A stretch of DNA of 63,613 nt from a virus. Taxonomy: Duplodnaviria; Caudoviricetes. The position numbers and the translations under genes were made by a program. The stretch covers positions 1 through 63,613 of IMG/VR virus record IMGVR_UViG_3300044638_006592. The stretch is one strand, 5' to 3'. The notes below the pieces were generated by a model, which was not told the origin of the DNA, made no database searches, and was given only the letters and a program-made list of their open reading frames with translations. Positions 684 to 33,644 of the stretch are shown here, in pieces (positions within the stretch are counted from its first letter, which is position 1; each line of letters begins with the position of its first letter).

Positions 684-1694
684 ATGAGGAAAGTATATAA
701 TTTTAATAAAAACCAAATAAATGATATGATTAATCTTTATGTGAATGAGATGAAATCGACTATGTTTATTTCTGAAAAATATAATGTTGATTCTTCAGTA
801 ATTAAACGAGTTTTAATTAAAAATGGTGTAGAAATAATAAAAGGGTCAGCATTTAGTGTTAATTTTTGGGTTAAAAGAGGTTTATCTGAAGAAGAATCAA
901 CTCGAAAAATTAAAGAAATGAAACCAAATTTAGTTGAACATTGGTTGTGTAGAGGATTTTCTATTGAAGAATCTAAATTAAAAACTGAATTACATTTAAT
1001 GAATACTGAAAGAGCGTTTATTGTAAAATATGGTAAAGAAGAAGGAGTTAAATTATTTAGAGAAAAAAAAGTTAAAGAGGGTAAATTACATTCACCAAGA
1101 AGTGTTGAATATTGGTTAAATAAAGGATTTTCTGTTGAGGAATCAAAAAATAAAGTTTCTGAAGGTCAGAATAAATTCAGTTTAGTTAAATGTATTGAAA
1201 AATATGGTGAAGAAGAAGGTAAAATAATATTTACTGAACGACAAAAAAAATGGCAAGAATCACTTTATAAGAATGGTAATTTAAAATCCGGATATTCAAA
1301 AGTGTCACAAGATTTATTCTTTGAGTTATTAAAATATTATAAAAATGTTGAAGAATTAAATTATGTTATGTTCGCTAAAAAAGGTGGTGAGTTTGTATTA
1401 ACCAGTAATGATGGGTTTTATCGTTATGATTTTACCGATTTATTAAATAAAAAAATTATTGAATATAATGGTGATAATTACCACGCTAATCCGGACACTT
1501 ATTCTGTAAATGAAACCCCAAATCCTTTTCGTAAAAATATCACATCTGAAGATATATGGAAAAAAGATGATATTAAGATTAAATTGGCGAATAAACATAA
1601 GTATGATGTTTTAATTATATGGGATTCCGAATATAAAAAAGATAAAGAAAAAGTTATAAAAAAATGTTTAAATTTTTTAAAAAATGAAAATTAA
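684..1694 (+). CDS. Free-standing homing endonuclease, Vsr/DUF559-like C-terminal nuclease domain
   Basis: C-terminal YDF...IIEYNGDNYHANP...KKDDIKIKLA...VLIIWDSEY; internal WxxRGFSxEES and KYGxEEG repeats; lies between the two intein halves. Confidence 0.75.
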   Translation: MRKVYNFNKNQINDMINLYVNEMKSTMFISEKYNVDSSVIKRVLIKNGVEIIKGSAFSVNFWVKRGLSEEESTRKIKEMKPNLVEHWLCRGFSIEESKLKTELHLMNTERAFIVKYGKEEGVKLFREKKVKEGKLHSPRSVEYWLNKGFSVEESKNKVSEGQNKFSLVKCIEKYGEEEGKIIFTERQKKWQESLYKNGNLKSGYSKVSQDLFFELLKYYKNVEELNYVMFAKKGGEFVLTSNDGFYRYDFTDLLNKKIIEYNGDNYHANPDTYSVNETPNPFRKNITSEDIWKKDDIKIKLANKHKYDVLIIWDSEYKKDKEKVIKKCLNFLKNEN

Positions 1695-2049
1695 AATTGG
1701 GGAATTATATGAAATTTACCAAAAATATGGTGATTTAGGTTTTAAAGTTAATACACCATATGGGTATAAAAATATTGAATGGTGTGGTATTACAGAAAAA
1801 AACGCGGATATATATAGATGTGAGTTAGAAAATGGGATGTTTGTTGAAGGTGCGGATTATCATAAATTAAAAAATGATAATGATGAATTTGTCGTTCTTA
1901 AAGAACTTCAAATCGGTGAAAAAATACAAACAATTAATGGTGATAGTTTGGTAACCAATGTTAAATTATTAGATGAAAAGGATACTCTTTATGACGTTCA
2001 GGTTGCTGAGGTTCATCAATATTATACAAATGGTATTGTATCTCACAAT
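1684..2049 (+). other. Split intein C-fragment (IntC, 122 aa)
   Basis: Block B-like GADYH, block F LYDVQV, block G SHN followed by +1 Thr. Confidence 0.85.
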
Positions 2050-3903
2050 ACAGTCTTAACGGTGGATTTACTATTGTTCTTATTCTTTAATGAGACAACC
2101 AAAACAACAAAGGCCGAAGAAATATTTAATCGATTTACCGATAAAAACAAAGTATCGGTAAAGGGTGAAATTAGTATTGATGGTGAGGATTATATTATTG
2201 TTAGGCAAATTGAAAGAAAGAAAGGTAAAACTGGTGAATGGAATGTTAAAACCGAATTAGATTTCTATAAAAAACTTTCGGATGGTAGTTTGCAGAACTT
2301 CACTGGTGAACAAAGAAGAGAAACCGAAAACTTCATTAAAACATCAATTGGTTCTAAGGAAGACTTTTTAATGACGATTTTAACAACTGCAAGTAATTTA
2401 GAAGAATTAATTGATTCCAAACCAACTGCAAGAGGTCAAGTTTTGTCTAGATTTATGGGGTTAGATTTTCTTAAAAGAAAAGAAGATGTTGCGAAAGAAA
2501 TCTATACTGAATTTGCATCTTCGATGATATCTAAAGTTTACAATAGTGAAAAACTAAAACAGGATAACGAAGATTATAAAATAAAAATTCAGTCATTTAA
2601 AGATGAGAATACTAATCATCAAAATGATTTAATCCTTGTTCAAGACAGAATTATTAAAGGTCAAGAATATAGAGATGGTCTTTTAAAAAGTAAGCATACT
2701 GATATTGATAAGGAAATCACATTATTGTCTCCCGATAAAGTTACTGGTGAAATTTTATCATTAGAAACACAAAAAAAAGGAGTTCAAAAACAACTTGAAG
2801 AAATAAAAGTGATTGAACCATCATCGTATTATCACGAAGATGAACATGATTTGATAAAGGAAGAGACCAAGAAAACATTCCAACAAAAAGTTGAAGTGGA
2901 AATAAAAATCAAATCTATTGAAGAGTTGAAAAGTTCTGTTAGTGGTGGTATTAAGTGTGAGCATTGTGGTATTGAGTTAATGAATGCGGCGATTACAAAT
3001 TCTAAAATATCTCAACTTGACGGATTTATCGTGCATAAAACTCAATTATTAGGGTTAATGCAGGATTTAACCAACAAAGAACAGGCGTTTGTACAATTAA
3101 AAAAGGAATTTGATGAGTATGAAAAAAACAAACTAATCAAAGAAAAGCATGAGTTAAACATTGAAAGTTTGGATATGAAAATATCAAATCTTCAAGACAA
3201 GTTATCGAAATACAATGAACTTCAGGATAAGATTAAAGAAAATGAAAAAACTGAAACTTTAATCATTAAAGCGGGTTTAAAATTGGATGAATTGGAATCT
3301 GAAAAAACTAATTTATCAAGAAAAATTGATACGAATAATTTTCAAATTAAATCATTCGATGATAAAATTGAAAATAATAATAAATTGATTCAAAAAATCA
3401 GTGAAGAATCTGAGAAAGAAAAGATATATAAAGTTTATTTGGATATCTTTGGAAAGAATGGTATTTCTAAAATTATTATGAAAACAATGATGCCATTAAT
3501 TAATTCAGAACTACAAAGATTACTTGAAGACAGTTCACATTTTAGATTAGAAGTTCGAATTAATGATAAGAATGAAGTTGAGTTTATAATGATTGACAAT
3601 AATACTCAAGTAGAAAAACTTATGGCTTCAGGTTCAGGTTATGAAAGAACCATAGCATCATTAGCTCTTAGGTCTGTTTTAACTAAAATTTGTTCATTAC
3701 CAAAACCAAATATTGTGGTAATGGATGAAGTTTTTGGTAAGATATCTAATGATAATTTGGATATGGTAGGTGAGTTTTTCAATAAGATTAAGGAATATTT
3801 TGAAAAAATATTTTTAATTACCCATAATCCGTTGGTAACCAACTGGTCTGACAACGTTATCAAGATTAAAAAGGTGGATAATATAAGTTTTGTCACACAA
3901 TAA
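1684..3903 (+). CDS. sbcC: Split-intein C part fused to SbcC/Rad50 C-terminal fragment
   Basis: LYDVQV...YYTNGIVSHN/T intein end, then coiled coil, CEHC zinc hook, signature SGSGYE, Walker B IVVMDEVFG, H-loop LITHN. Confidence 0.9.
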   Translation: MKIKIGELYEIYQKYGDLGFKVNTPYGYKNIEWCGITEKNADIYRCELENGMFVEGADYHKLKNDNDEFVVLKELQIGEKIQTINGDSLVTNVKLLDEKDTLYDVQVAEVHQYYTNGIVSHNTVLTVDLLLFLFFNETTKTTKAEEIFNRFTDKNKVSVKGEISIDGEDYIIVRQIERKKGKTGEWNVKTELDFYKKLSDGSLQNFTGEQRRETENFIKTSIGSKEDFLMTILTTASNLEELIDSKPTARGQVLSRFMGLDFLKRKEDVAKEIYTEFASSMISKVYNSEKLKQDNEDYKIKIQSFKDENTNHQNDLILVQDRIIKGQEYRDGLLKSKHTDIDKEITLLSPDKVTGEILSLETQKKGVQKQLEEIKVIEPSSYYHEDEHDLIKEETKKTFQQKVEVEIKIKSIEELKSSVSGGIKCEHCGIELMNAAITNSKISQLDGFIVHKTQLLGLMQDLTNKEQAFVQLKKEFDEYEKNKLIKEKHELNIESLDMKISNLQDKLSKYNELQDKIKENEKTETLIIKAGLKLDELESEKTNLSRKIDTNNFQIKSFDDKIENNNKLIQKISEESEKEKIYKVYLDIFGKNGISKIIMKTMMPLINSELQRLLEDSSHFRLEVRINDKNEVEFIMIDNNTQVEKLMASGSGYERTIASLALRSVLTKICSLPKPNIVVMDEVFGKISNDNLDMVGEFFNKIKEYFEKIFLITHNPLVTNWSDNVIKIKKVDNISFVTQ

Positions 3904-13954: not shown

Positions 13955-14884
13955 ATGAACACTGAAAATTTATATGATGCCCTTGGAGTTTCAGAAACCG
14001 CAACCCAAGATGAAATAAAGAAGGCTTACCGAAAATTGGTGATTGAACATCATCCTGATAAGGGTGGTGATGAAAGTAAATTTAAAAAAATCGCTCATTC
14101 TTATGATACTTTAGGTGACCCCAATAAACGAGCACAATATGACAACCAAAGAAAGAATCCATTTGGAAACCAAAACGGAGGGTTTAACCCATTTGAAGAC
14201 TTCTTTAATGGTGGTGGATTCTATAATCAAAGAAAAAGAAGTGCTCCTGAAAAAGTAATTGACCTTACAATTGGTGTGATTGAATCATATAAATCTGTTA
14301 ACAAAACTATAACATATAGAAGAAATATTGAATGTAATACTTGTCATGGTAGTGGTGGAGATAGAAAAACATGTGATACTTGTAAAGGTGAAGGATTCTC
14401 AACAGTAAGAGTTGGAACTGGAATGTTTGTACAACTTATGAGACAAGTATGTAATACATGTAGAGGAAATGGTTATGTATTAACAAAAAAATGTACGACC
14501 TGTGATGGAAATACCACAAAAAATGTTACAGAAACAATCGATATCAAATTACCACATGGAGTTGATGAAGGTCAATTCTATAGACTTGAAGGAAAAGGTG
14601 ATTTCTCAAAAGGTATGTATGGTGATTTAATACTAAGAATTAAAATAGCTCCACAAGATAACTTCGAGAAATTAAATAATGATTTAGTGTATAACGCTTA
14701 TCTAGGTTTTGATGACCTTCAAAAAGATTCATTGGAAATACCACATCCATCAGGAACAGTTTCCGTTAAATTACCAAAAGAATTTGATTCCTCAAAACCA
14801 CTTAGAGTTAAAGGAAAAGGATTTAGTACCAACGGAGTTGGGGATATGTTTATTAAACTTATTGTTAAGTTCAATAGGAATTAA
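13955..14884 (+). CDS. dnaJ: DnaJ chaperone
   Basis: J domain with HPD, G/F-rich linker, four CxxCxGxG-type repeats, C-terminal domain. Confidence 0.95.
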   Translation: MNTENLYDALGVSETATQDEIKKAYRKLVIEHHPDKGGDESKFKKIAHSYDTLGDPNKRAQYDNQRKNPFGNQNGGFNPFEDFFNGGGFYNQRKRSAPEKVIDLTIGVIESYKSVNKTITYRRNIECNTCHGSGGDRKTCDTCKGEGFSTVRVGTGMFVQLMRQVCNTCRGNGYVLTKKCTTCDGNTTKNVTETIDIKLPHGVDEGQFYRLEGKGDFSKGMYGDLILRIKIAPQDNFEKLNNDLVYNAYLGFDDLQKDSLEIPHPSGTVSVKLPKEFDSSKPLRVKGKGFSTNGVGDMFIKLIVKFNRN

Positions 14885-15596: not shown

Positions 15597-16148
15597 TTAT
15601 TGTTTTGGTGTATACTCCCTCAATTTGTCGGTATCTTCCAACAGGTATGGTGTTGGATAAAAGAGACCCAAAGGTGTATACTCACTCAATTTGTCGGTCT
15701 CTTCCAACTTATCCATCAATTCTACTGCTCGAGGTTGAGGTGTATACTCCCTCAATTTGTCGGTCTCTTCCAACAAACTATCGTCATTGATGCAGGTCAT
15801 GGCGGGTTTATACTCCCTCAATTTGTCGGTCTCTTCCAACTGGCGTGAAGTTGGCACATTGTCCATCATTGGTGTATACTCCCTCAATTTTTCGGTCTCT
15901 TCCAACCATATATTCATAATTGATTGAATTTCAGTGTACTCCATACCAAAAAATGACTCAAAAAATGACCAAATTTGATTATAATCAATCCAAAATTTCT
16001 TAGTTTTTAAATCTTGGTTAATTACAAAAATATCACCTTTTTTATAAAATATAGAATTTGGATAATAATCATGTTTGTACATTTTCATTTTATCCAAGTT
16101 AAAATTATCATTTAACCACTTTAACTTAATCTTTGTTAATTTATCCAT
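15597..16148 (-). CDS. Small phage protein (paralog of 31698..32048) whose C-terminus reads through a CRISPR-like array
   Basis: Shared YPxSIFY...QDLKxKxF...IWxFFESFFGMxY...IWLEET; then LEETDKLREYTP five times at 22 aa period. Confidence 0.75.
   Translation of the reverse strand: MDKLTKIKLKWLNDNFNLDKMKMYKHDYYPNSIFYKKGDIFVINQDLKTKKFWIDYNQIWSFFESFFGMEYTEIQSIMNIWLEETEKLREYTPMMDNVPTSRQLEETDKLREYKPAMTCINDDSLLEETDKLREYTPQPRAVELMDKLEETDKLSEYTPLGLFYPTPYLLEDTDKLREYTPKQ
15607..15906 (-). CRISPR. CRISPR-like mini-array 1: 5 x 36 bp repeats, 4 x 30 bp spacers, no cas genes in window
   Basis: Repeat GTTGGAAGAGACCGACAAATTGAGGGAGTATACACC (minus strand) at 15607-15642, 15673-15708, 15739-15774, 15805-15840, 15871-15906; spacers unique and exactly 30 nt. 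Confidence 0.8.
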
Positions 16149-16170
16149 ATATTAATTTTTATATAAAATA

Positions 16171-16198
16171 TCAAACCCCCCAATTAAGGAGGGTTTGA
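16171..16198. terminator. Rho-independent terminator-like hairpin
   Basis: TCAAACCCCCC-AATTAA-GGAGGGTTTGA. Confidence 0.6.
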
Positions 16199-16375
16199 TT
16201 TTCACCATTAAGGTTGAGGTATTTCTACCCGAATCGAAACTCCCGATTCTTGGAGGTTGGGTTTTCTTCCCCAGGATTTCCCGACATTCCTTTTCACCAT
16301 TAAGGTTGAGGTGTTTCTACCCGAATCGATACCCCCGATTCTTGGAGGTTGGGTTTAAGGATTTCCCAACATTCC
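16199..16375 (-). ncRNA. Tandem pair of ~90 nt GC-rich structured repeats; putative small RNA
   Basis: Copies at 16199-16290 and 16291-16375; GAATCG/CGATTC stem conserved while loops vary; bracketed by a promoter and a terminator. Confidence 0.5.
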
Positions 16376-31697: not shown

Positions 31698-32048
31698 ATG
31701 AAATATCTTATAACGGAATCAAAAGTAAGGGAAATTGCGTTAAAATGGATGAATGATAATTTTAGTCCAGACCAATTGGAAATTGTTAAAAGTCCAAAAT
31801 ATCCTGACTCAATTTTTTACAGAAAAAATGGTCAAGTTGTTATGGAACAGGATTTAAAAAAGAAAAATTTTTACTTTCATTATGATGAAATTTGGTTATT
31901 TTTTGAATCGTTTTTTGGTATGAAATACTCTGAAATAGAACAACTTATGGAGATATGGTTGGAAGAGACCCTTAATTTAGAGGAATATACACCTATCAGT
32001 GAGTACGTAATCAATGGCATTGGTGGTTGGAAGAGACCCTTAATTTAA
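31698..32048 (+). CDS. MKYLITES-family protein whose 3' end is repeat 1 plus spacer 1 of CRISPR-like array 2
   Basis: Paralog of 15597..16148; LEETLNLEEYTP is encoded by the 36 bp repeat. Confidence 0.8.
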   Translation: MKYLITESKVREIALKWMNDNFSPDQLEIVKSPKYPDSIFYRKNGQVVMEQDLKKKNFYFHYDEIWLFFESFFGMKYSEIEQLMEIWLEETLNLEEYTPISEYVINGIGGWKRPLI

Positions 32049-32323
32049 AGGGATATACACCTAGATTATGGTTTTAGGTTGCCATCAGCTAGTTGGAAGA
32101 GACCCTTAATTTAAAGGGATATACACCTTTTCATAATAAATTCTATTTTATTGTTACGTTGGAAGAGACCCTTAATTTATAGGAATATACACCTCAATAC
32201 CGCGATAAAAATGGACGGACAGGTTGGAAAACACTCTCAATTTAGAGGGATATACACCCAATGATTCAGGTATATCGCAGATGTTTTAGTTTAAAAATAC
32301 TCTCAAATTAAAACAGAATCACC
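31958..32323 (+). CRISPR. CRISPR-like mini-array 2: 5 x 36 bp repeats plus one degenerate terminal repeat; spacers 32/30/30/29/30 bp
   Basis: GTTGGAAGAGACCCTTAATTTAAAGGGATATACACC-type repeats at 31958, 32026, 32092, 32158, 32223; degenerate copy 32289-32323; internal CCCTT/AAGGG stem. Confidence 0.85.
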
Positions 32324-32659
32324 TTCTCGAATACCTAATTTTTTACAGGTATTACCTTTCAATTCAAGTATGGTATCACCAGTTCCAAAATAGTTTGGAC
32401 AATCTTCAGTTTCACAAGGAGGACAATTATGGTGGATTTTTGTAATAACATTATCTTCAATAAAAATAATGTCTAATGGTATAATGCAGTTTTTCATCCA
32501 AAATGCGTGTTCACCTGAGTTCATCAAAAATAACATACCATTAAATGTGTTATCAAAGTTTTTACCCATCATACCTTTTGAGGTATCTTTTTGAGAAAAT
32601 ACAACTTTGACTTTGAATTTGTGATTTCCTATATTTATTAACATAACTATAAATATCAA
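32303..32659 (-). CDS. DUF192 family protein
   Basis: GMLF...FWMKNCIIPLDIIFI...ILELKGN...LGIREGD. Confidence 0.85.
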   Translation of the reverse strand: MIFIVMLINIGNHKFKVKVVFSQKDTSKGMMGKNFDNTFNGMLFLMNSGEHAFWMKNCIIPLDIIFIEDNVITKIHHNCPPCETEDCPNYFGTGDTILELKGNTCKKLGIREGDSVLI

Positions 32660-33191: not shown

Positions 33192-33644
33192 TTGTTGAGT
33201 ATGGGAAATAATATTCAAATAAAGAACAGAAAAGTTTCATTTGAATATGAGATTATTGAGACTTATACTGCCGGAATCGTACTTCAAGGAACTGAGGTTA
33301 AAATGATTAGGGAAGGTAAAGTATCAATGGTTGACAGTTATTGTTATTTTAGTGATGGTGAACTATTTGTTAAAAATTTATTAATAAACGAATCTAAATC
33401 TTTTTTCACTCACAAACCTGACAGAATTAAGAAACTTTTGTTGAAGAAACAAGAATTAGTTAAGATTGAGAATAAACTTGTTAAGGGATTAACGTTATTA
33501 CCATTCAAGTTATTCACGAATGAGAAAGGTGTAATAAAAATTGAGGTTGTATTAGGTAGAGGTAAAAAATTGTATGATAAGAGAGAGAGTTTGAAACTGA
33601 AAGATATAAAGAGAATACAAAATTGTCAACTAAAAATAAAATAA
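33192..33644 (+). CDS. smpB: SsrA-binding protein SmpB
   Basis: NRKVSFEY...AGIVLQGTEVKMIREGK...KLLLKKQE...GRGKKLYDKRE. Confidence 0.95.
   Translation: MLSMGNNIQIKNRKVSFEYEIIETYTAGIVLQGTEVKMIREGKVSMVDSYCYFSDGELFVKNLLINESKSFFTHKPDRIKKLLLKKQELVKIENKLVKGLTLLPFKLFTNEKGVIKIEVVLGRGKKLYDKRESLKLKDIKRIQNCQLKIK

Follow-up and report, generated by a model that had tools for sequence, protein, structure and literature searches.

Within the 63,613-bp stretch of DNA examined here (the window, which is the whole of the Caudoviricetes record IMGVR_UViG_3300044638_006592 in IMG/VR), a small gene on the minus strand runs without interruption into a CRISPR array. One spacer of this array, at positions 15775-15804, carries coding sequence for the motif TIVIDAGHG of Amidase_3 enzymes. 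The source record is a single contig, classed as a virus record, with a CheckV completeness of 22%. Related IMG/VR fragments are 12-115 kb long and are rated 4-39% complete; taken together with the 22% of the window, these ratings suggest a phage genome of roughly 290 kb. The G + C content of the window is 25-34%, its largest open reading frame (ORF) encodes 739 amino acids, and the array locus is carried by 19 lake-water metagenome runs.

Arrays embedded in the ends of small phage genes

The window contains two arrays on opposite strands, each attached to a small gene that is referred to here as its leader gene. The features on which the argument depends are as follows.

15870-16148, minus strand: leader gene 1, 93 codons, the last 12 of which (LEETEKLREYTP) are the first repeat of Array 1
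15607-15906, minus strand: Array 1, in which five 36-bp repeats enclose four unrelated 30-bp spacers
15871-15906, 15805-15840, 15739-15774, 15673-15708 and 15607-15642, minus strand: the repeats of Array 1, in order from the gene to the trailer
15775-15804, minus strand: spacer 2 of Array 1 (the amidase spacer), reverse-complementary on the array strand to the sense strand of the amidase gene
15743-15808, minus strand: polymorphic 66-bp unit of repeat plus amidase spacer, present or absent in lake runs
16170-16199, minus strand: terminator-like hairpin with a 12-bp stem and a T run, directly upstream of leader gene 1 (from a consensus scan only)
31698-31994, plus strand: leader gene 2, with the C-terminal end ...IWLEETLNLEEYTP; its last 12 codons are the first repeat of Array 2
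31958-32259, plus strand: Array 2, four good repeats and a degenerate fifth, with spacers of 32, 30, 30 and 29 bp
32062-32091, plus strand: spacer 2 of Array 2 (the uvrB spacer), which reads DYGFRLPSA on the array strand and is sense to its source

The repeats of Array 1 start at 15607, 15673, 15739, 15805 and 15871, a spacing of exactly 66 bp, and a 24-nt core of the repeat gives five matches at three or fewer mismatches, compared with none in 100 shuffles. Repeats distal to the gene bear fixed mutations. In Array 2, an extra decayed repeat remnant follows on the 3' side, reaching about 32325. The repeats of the two arrays have their first 13 and last 8 bases in common and differ in the core; they belong to one repeat family. 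In addition, a convergent gene (32303-32659, minus strand) is overlapped at its 3' end by the last, decayed repeat of Array 2, and this overlap is kept in two related loci (L023 and L024).

When the repeats are read so that they start GTTGGAAG, each array lies 3' of a small gene encoded by that strand, and in both cases the gene's last 12 codons make up the first repeat. The product of leader gene 1, read from 16148 to 15870, has the C-terminal end ...IWLEETEKLREYTP, and the two leader proteins are paralogues with 55% identity. Because each 66-bp unit amounts to 22 codons, the ORF of leader gene 1 (15597-16148, minus strand) stays open across all four spacers of Array 1, and it stops two codons past the last repeat. 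The corresponding ORF of Array 2 terminates at 32048, its frame having been shifted by the 32-bp first spacer. An AF2 model of leader protein 1 (pLDDT 83.5) predicts a confident alpha/beta domain whose last helix (residues 71-87) would enter the part encoded by the repeat, with the final four residues disordered. In one related locus (L001, 10270-12045, minus strand), the 93-residue leader domain forms the C-terminal part of a 591-amino-acid ORF that continues into the array; the domain can therefore occur fused to a larger protein.

The leader protein has no Pfam family, no match by tblastn among the 50,697 phage records of INPHARED, no match in the ESM Atlas and none in fold searches (best Foldseek E 0.13; best VIA-align Z 5.0). 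Against INPHARED, the whole of Array 1 gave chance matches only and the first 25 kb of the window gave no match. Of the CRISPR-associated (Cas) proteins, no Cas1 could be detected in the window or in any of nine related viral records (all fragments, rated 4-39% complete), and no Cas9 scored above cut-off in the five of those nine that were scanned for it. In the phage DNA examined, the arrays stand without cas genes. A complement to either repeat of more than 11 nt, as expected of the anti-repeat of a trans-activating CRISPR RNA, was absent elsewhere in the window, although such an RNA and Cas9 could both come from a host.

The arrangement extends well beyond this window. With a profile of the leader protein, 610 candidates yielded 298 proteins at E <= 0.001, and every one of the 298 is metagenomic. 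In the C-terminal tails of the best 120 of these 298, further LEET..L..YTP units follow one another about 10 variable residues apart, and other tails in this set terminate in the repeat peptide read in a shifted frame. At the level of DNA, gene and array are fused in 14 of the 15 viral loci recovered by the profile, the array starting within the last 12 codons of the gene; the exception (L054) is a partial match with no array. Gene-fused arrays are likewise present in L023, L024 and L025, the last of which was excluded from later counts. Repeats diverge along with the gene, and those of L052 and L053 start GGTGGAGG and end ACAACAAC. Judged across these loci, the gene-embedded array is evidently a trait of a lake phage family and not a sporadic occurrence. 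L025 (3180-3300; G306:C1:3314-3548), at 41% identity, has repeats of a different sequence and a 'spacer' made of three copies of TACCCCACAAG, with a second array about 9 kb distant on the same contig.

Origin and turnover of the spacers

On the plus strand, segment 15775-15804 reads AAACTATCGTCATTGATGCAGGTCATGGCG and translates as QTIVIDAGHGG. It forms part of a plus-strand ORF (15600-15848) that contains ...QQTIVIDAGHGGFILPQ, where the motif stands in the context QQTIVIDAGHGG. A sequence-only reading of this DNA had described the segment as a spacer encoding TIVIDAGHG and had proposed that it was captured from foreign Amidase_3 coding DNA. The segment is indeed a genuine spacer, lying between two of the five repeats, and a nucleotide match to an amidase gene, whose absence would have told against the proposal, does exist. 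It is exact (30/30) and is located at L004:1359-1388 (plus strand), on a contig of a metagenome-assembled genome (MAG) labelled as uncultured Christensenella. The identity found by BLAST covers 33 nt, with three flanking bases of the repeat also matching; that these three bases equal the repeat ends may be chance, or may hint at how fragments are chosen.

The matching ORF encodes 235-245 amino acids with an N-terminal hydrophobic stretch, and its residues 42-222 align with positions 1-172 of the Pfam Amidase_3 profile (PF01520; E 1.2e-42). Residue 42 opens the peptide TIVIDAGHGG, and the spacer thus begins at profile position 1. The best NCBIfam model is spore_cwlD (TIGR02883) at 189.8 bits, below its cut-off of 221.55, and the gene is accordingly classed only as CwlD-like, short of the equivalog cut-off. 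Its neighbors are tsaD, prfB and secA, in a region of 36-42% G + C, and it is a chromosomal amidase gene and not that of an endolysin. Nor does it belong to Bacteroidota, the group whose genomes the sequence-only reading had suggested searching.

Viral sequences did not provide an alternative source. The exact spacer has no match in IMG/VR, where only four contigs encode TIVIDAGHGG, with 21-25 of 30 bases identical to the spacer, and no viral endolysin source was found there. A metagenome match (L003) was considered as a protospacer and rejected, as it is the same phage's own array. Short conserved motifs can arise by chance in one of six reading frames, and the plus-strand motif might on that account be coincidental, the segment not being amidase DNA at all. 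We regard this as scarcely credible in view of the exact match over 30 nt to an Amidase_3 gene, when random matches to a 30-mer are expected about 1e-6 times in about 1.2e12 positions. Furthermore, 14 other genes that encode TIVIDAGHGG differ from the spacer at 5-8 of the 9 wobble positions, and within the order of the MAG, where 11 of 121 genomes encode the peptide, the ten others differ at 5-7 of these sites. From the 14 sequences, the probability of a full wobble match is estimated at about 9e-6 per such gene. Derivation of the spacer from an Amidase_3 gene is secure by these comparisons of sequence; the lineage of the donor is discussed below.

The sense strand of the amidase gene corresponds to the plus strand of the window, so a transcript of the array made from the minus strand would be antisense to amidase mRNA. 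This relation, also part of the sequence-only reading, holds as a matter of geometry, and the direction of transcription that it presupposes is made likely by the pattern of spacer turnover described below. That reading made too much of the orientation, as can be seen from the only other spacer that can be named. Spacer 2 of Array 2 is 26/30 identical, in the frame of the coding sequence, to the annotated uvrB of Mycoplasmopsis cynos. Of 101 genomes sampled, 9 had a single occurrence of the nucleotide pattern able to encode its peptide, and the reversed control gave none; in the three genomes checked it lay each time within a uvrB gene (TIGR00631) and on the same strand. The spacer is accordingly assigned as a fragment of uvrB in sense orientation. 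Because this spacer is sense, the antisense orientation of the amidase spacer is no evidence of RNA targeting, and the orientation of one spacer should not be read in that way. On the strength of these two matches, at least some spacers are evidently bacterial chromosomal DNA, taken in either orientation. Within uvrB of M. cynos (L058), the sequence downstream of the protospacer resembles the start of the repeat that follows the spacer (32092-32110), with 12/19 identities ungapped, which may be chance or may again hint at how fragments are chosen.

For the remaining spacers the searches were largely empty. Two of them, WREVGTLSII and GMVLDKRDP, had been put forward as plausible coding sequence; both peptides are truly encoded on the plus strand, but a wobble-degenerate search found only the copy in a relative's array. 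The eight spacers other than the amidase spacer had no match in the protospacer MAG beyond a 19-nt intergenic chance match. The window spacers have no match elsewhere in the window and none in a plasmid collection except for uvrB, the core of Array 2 spacer 1 gave no matches, and the arrays of L053, L050 and L047 gave nothing significant against plasmids. That two of the nine spacers lie in ultra-conserved motifs exceeds what would be expected if a chromosome were sampled at random. The excess is qualified by detection, which favors such spacers, because only these can be recognized when the true donor is absent from the collections.

Comparison of close relatives indicates where spacers are gained. 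Between the window and L002/L041, the two gene-distal spacers are common and the two gene-proximal spacers differ in each. L052 and L053 have two spacers in common while one and three differ, and L047 has two spacers in addition to those of L046. Among protein variants 97-100% identical to leader gene 1, at least eight different proximal spacers are found over the same distal ones. Because three phage pairs show this signature of integration at the leader end, the gene side is taken as the leader side of the array. New spacers at the gene end, together with degenerate repeats at the far end, make it likely that the array is transcribed in the direction of the gene.

The amidase unit itself varies within natural populations. 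When contigs of four lake runs (X1, X2, X4 and X13) were placed on the locus, a 94-nt piece (15745-15838) containing the amidase spacer was present in the first three, at depths close to those of its flanks (21.7 compared with 20-23.6 in X1, 8.9 with 10.9-12 in X2, and 6.2 with 6.0-6.2 in X4). In X13, a 5714-nt contig links 15742 directly to 15809, omitting exactly 66 bp, and the depth of the spacer is 0. Three protein variants (P0004, P0006 and P0007) likewise pass from spacer 1 directly to spacer 3. The unit is thus naturally present or absent in lake populations and, from the X13 contig and the variants without it, would have either disappeared through recombination between repeats or arisen by internal insertion. 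Ahead of the unit, the repeat bears a private C-to-A change.

Other features of the window

Several further genes can be named. Putative products include an SmpB protein (SsrA-binding protein; TIGR00086, 149.9 bits, over cut-off) at 33192-33644, a DnaJ-like chaperone (240 bits, short of the cut-off for an equivalog) at 13955-14884 and an SbcC-like nuclease subunit (PHROG 77, E 4.6e-36) at 1684-3903, all on the plus strand. As a clue to the host, the phage SmpB was uninformative, its Atlas matches coming from mixed taxa. Most other large ORFs in the window have no Pfam or PHROG family match. On the minus strand, 16439-16535 matches the Rfam tRNA model (44.4 bits, E 6.7e-08), but around the anticodon a 37-nt insert stands in place of 11 model positions. 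No tRNA was called in the window by ARAGORN, and the match may represent a phage tRNA that is interrupted, by an intron or in some other way. Between it and leader gene 1 lie two 66-nt direct repeats (16199-16264 and 16291-16356), 95% alike, which are also found in L002 and belong to no Rfam family.

Possible use of the arrays by the phage

The amidase segment is a genuine spacer in a cas-less, gene-embedded phage mini-array, and the array probably yields guides for a Cas effector of the host. Among arming of the phage, a decoy, diversification of the protein tail and a tolerated scar, use as guides is the likeliest. In this phage family the array occupies the 3' end of a small gene that is conserved, each 66-bp unit adding 22 codons, and new units enter at the gene-proximal end. 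Because no cas gene was seen in the phage DNA examined, host Cas1-Cas2 is presumed to integrate the spacers in trans. The amidase spacer was copied from the start of the Amidase_3 catalytic domain and its sister spacer from uvrB. The array is most likely co-transcribed with the leader gene, and the transcript could then be cut into guide RNAs by a host effector that serves 36/30 arrays, possibly of type VI-B or II-C. The benefit to the phage may be that it points host nucleases at bacterial or rival targets.

Several known systems share parts of this scheme. The 36/30 geometry fits type VI-B and many type II arrays, and the available text of PMC13187072 gives 36-bp repeats and 30-bp spacers for VI-B2. 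In Flavobacterium columnare, according to the accessible sections of PMC8092290, the VI-B array is filled in trans by Cas1 of the type II-C system and takes up host and phage DNA alike, with no bias towards mRNA at acquisition. As far as those sections go, the phage arrays are similar in geometry, in the lack of adaptation genes of their own, in having chromosomal spacers without a strand rule, and in the order of guide then repeat when read from the leader side. They differ from VI-B in that no cas13b and no whole-repeat hairpin were found and that the array sits in a phage and within a gene. The ends of the repeats may resemble those of Bacteroidota VI-B repeats, a likeness that is not counted as evidence here.

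Virus-borne mini-CRISPR arrays without cas genes are also known (Medvedeva et al. 2019, PMC6858448; review PMC11656645) and, in the portions of these sources that are available, are likewise short, presumably served by host Cas proteins, and variable between close relatives. As described there, they hold 1-2 spacers derived from related viruses, in contrast to the 4-5 spacers found here, of which the two that can be named are bacterial housekeeping genes and whose array starts inside a gene and in frame. Their repeats are identical to those of the host, an identity that is unproven for the present arrays. The accessible part of a preprint (bioRxiv 10.64898/2026.06.01.729453) reports guide RNAs, encoded by phages, by which Cas9 of the host is hijacked or silenced; these, along with RNA anti-CRISPRs, resemble the present case in that the phage supplies an RNA for loading by host Cas proteins. 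Unlike those single fixed guides or lone repeats, in so far as the sources describe them, the arrays here keep gaining spacers. A limited literature search found no description in open-access text of arrays fused in frame to phage genes, and a boreal jumbophage preprint reports no CRISPR arrays in its isolates.

A number of observations weigh against use of the arrays as guides. The Array 2 repeat has a 5-bp internal hairpin and the Array 1 repeat a different one, also of 5 bp (z-scores -0.9 and -1.4); no whole-repeat hairpin common to both arrays was found, and neither repeat folds better than its shuffles. None of the Rfam CRISPR-DR families reaches threshold for the repeats. A search for a host array bearing this repeat, in the protospacer MAG and in 301 genomes of its class, found none: at three or fewer mismatches the repeat is absent from all of them, and the MAG has no Cas1. 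The origin of the amidase spacer in the lineage of that MAG is itself only likely. Genomes of its family are about 1 Mb, and 60 relatives contain nothing within three mismatches of the spacer. These two points, like the absence from the MAG of the repeat, of Cas1 and of matches to the other eight spacers, speak against that lineage as the host. An upper-bound estimate of 0.05-0.15 chance exact matches in 185,579 genomes, which assumes that at most 9% of them have such a gene and allows for two extra 5' bases, bears on the same point. Seven of the window's nine spacers have no known source, and none of the nine matches any of five related phage records. With one named spacer antisense and the other sense, there is no sign of selection for pairing with mRNA, and the listed runs that carry the array locus include no RNA run.

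The arrays might instead be scars without guide function, arising because the 3' end of the gene mimics the leader-repeat junction of a host array. Host Cas1-Cas2 would then integrate spacers there during infection, duplicating 36 bp of coding sequence each time. Nivala and colleagues reportedly observed in 2018 that off-target integration by Cas1-Cas2 yields new arrays ('neo-CRISPR'). The term also occurs in 10.1101/148544. The likeness to such events is that the repeat is a duplicate of pre-existing sequence beside the site of integration. It is real coding sequence that continues the last predicted helix, it has evolved together with the gene in loci that are 33-98% identical, and in Array 1 it has no conserved hairpin. 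Spacers that include housekeeping DNA of host type in both orientations also suit this account, and insertion at the junction would be tolerated because the protein is always preserved up to ...YTP. The amidase unit could be an internal insertion, in which it would resemble ectopic spacer acquisition (PMC7999890). However, 14 of 15 related loci carry arrays, each genome has them in two paralogues, and conservation across a large and diverged gene family is not the arrangement expected of sporadic accidents. The repeat ends are strongly conserved between Arrays 1 and 2 (12 nt at the 5' end, 8 nt at the 3' end), and scars would be expected to vanish, yet old distal spacers persist across relatives. 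We consider a by-product of this kind unlikely on balance. A repeat that acts as a decoy, soaking up the host effector as an RNA anti-CRISPR with its spacers incidental, is very improbable. Viral single repeats and mini-arrays do act as such inhibitors according to the accessible part of PMC11656645, and extraneous leader-repeat RNA can sequester Cas13b (PMC13187072, in the text available); here gene sequence precedes the first repeat and would yield RNA of this type. Spacers would not have to change in a decoy, yet here they turn over briskly, and no host repeat is known with which the phage repeat could be compared.

The open frame of Array 1 raises another explanation, namely that the array is valued as protein, either because spacers add about 10 variable C-terminal residues or because translation through the array is needed for expression. 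The ORF at 15597-16148 is open across four spacers, and stop codons are depleted more widely. In 17 arrays with 38 unique spacers (near-identical ones merged, three doubtful terminal spacers included), stops in the ORF frame occur in 4/24 spacers in a translated context, compared with 14/24 and 10/24 in the other frames (Fisher p 0.005). Among 119 listed proteins with a recognizable first repeat, which have 115 unique first spacers, 28/115 stop within 10 codons where 38-51% would be expected from composition (p 1e-3 to 5e-9); these proteins come from the best 120 of 298, a ranking that may favor tails with read-through. The base composition of spacers also varies with a period of 3 bases, relative to their ends (38 spacers, chi-square p 0.008), but the same period is present in untranslated spacers. 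In many arrays, Array 2 among them, the frame is broken after a single spacer of 29, 31 or 32 bp (giving tails such as SWKRLSN), stops in the codons at spacer-repeat junctions are not depleted (9/96 against about 10% expected), and the end of the peptide encoded by the repeat is predicted to be disordered. A function of the translated array is improbable on this evidence. There is also a small chance, somewhat greater than that, of an account in which both uses meet: a widespread family of giant lake phages would grow a CRISPR array in frame within an expressed gene, its captured fragments serving as candidate guides and as 10-residue stretches of protein, and would aim at conserved bacterial genes (those for the cell-wall amidase and UvrB) through adaptation and effector proteins of the host.

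Cas-less mini-arrays of viruses have been known as weapons between related viruses. The present case differs in the in-frame fusion of an array to a conserved gene throughout a large lake jumbo phage family, in a gain of spacers that is ongoing in nature, and in that the spacers that can be named derive from bacterial genes that are conserved. If the arrays are in use, the phage would turn the CRISPR machinery of its host on bacterial targets. If they are scars, they would form a natural record of off-target integration into phage DNA, with repeats born from coding sequence. In either case, the locus may serve as a traceable marker of contact between phages and their hosts in lakes.

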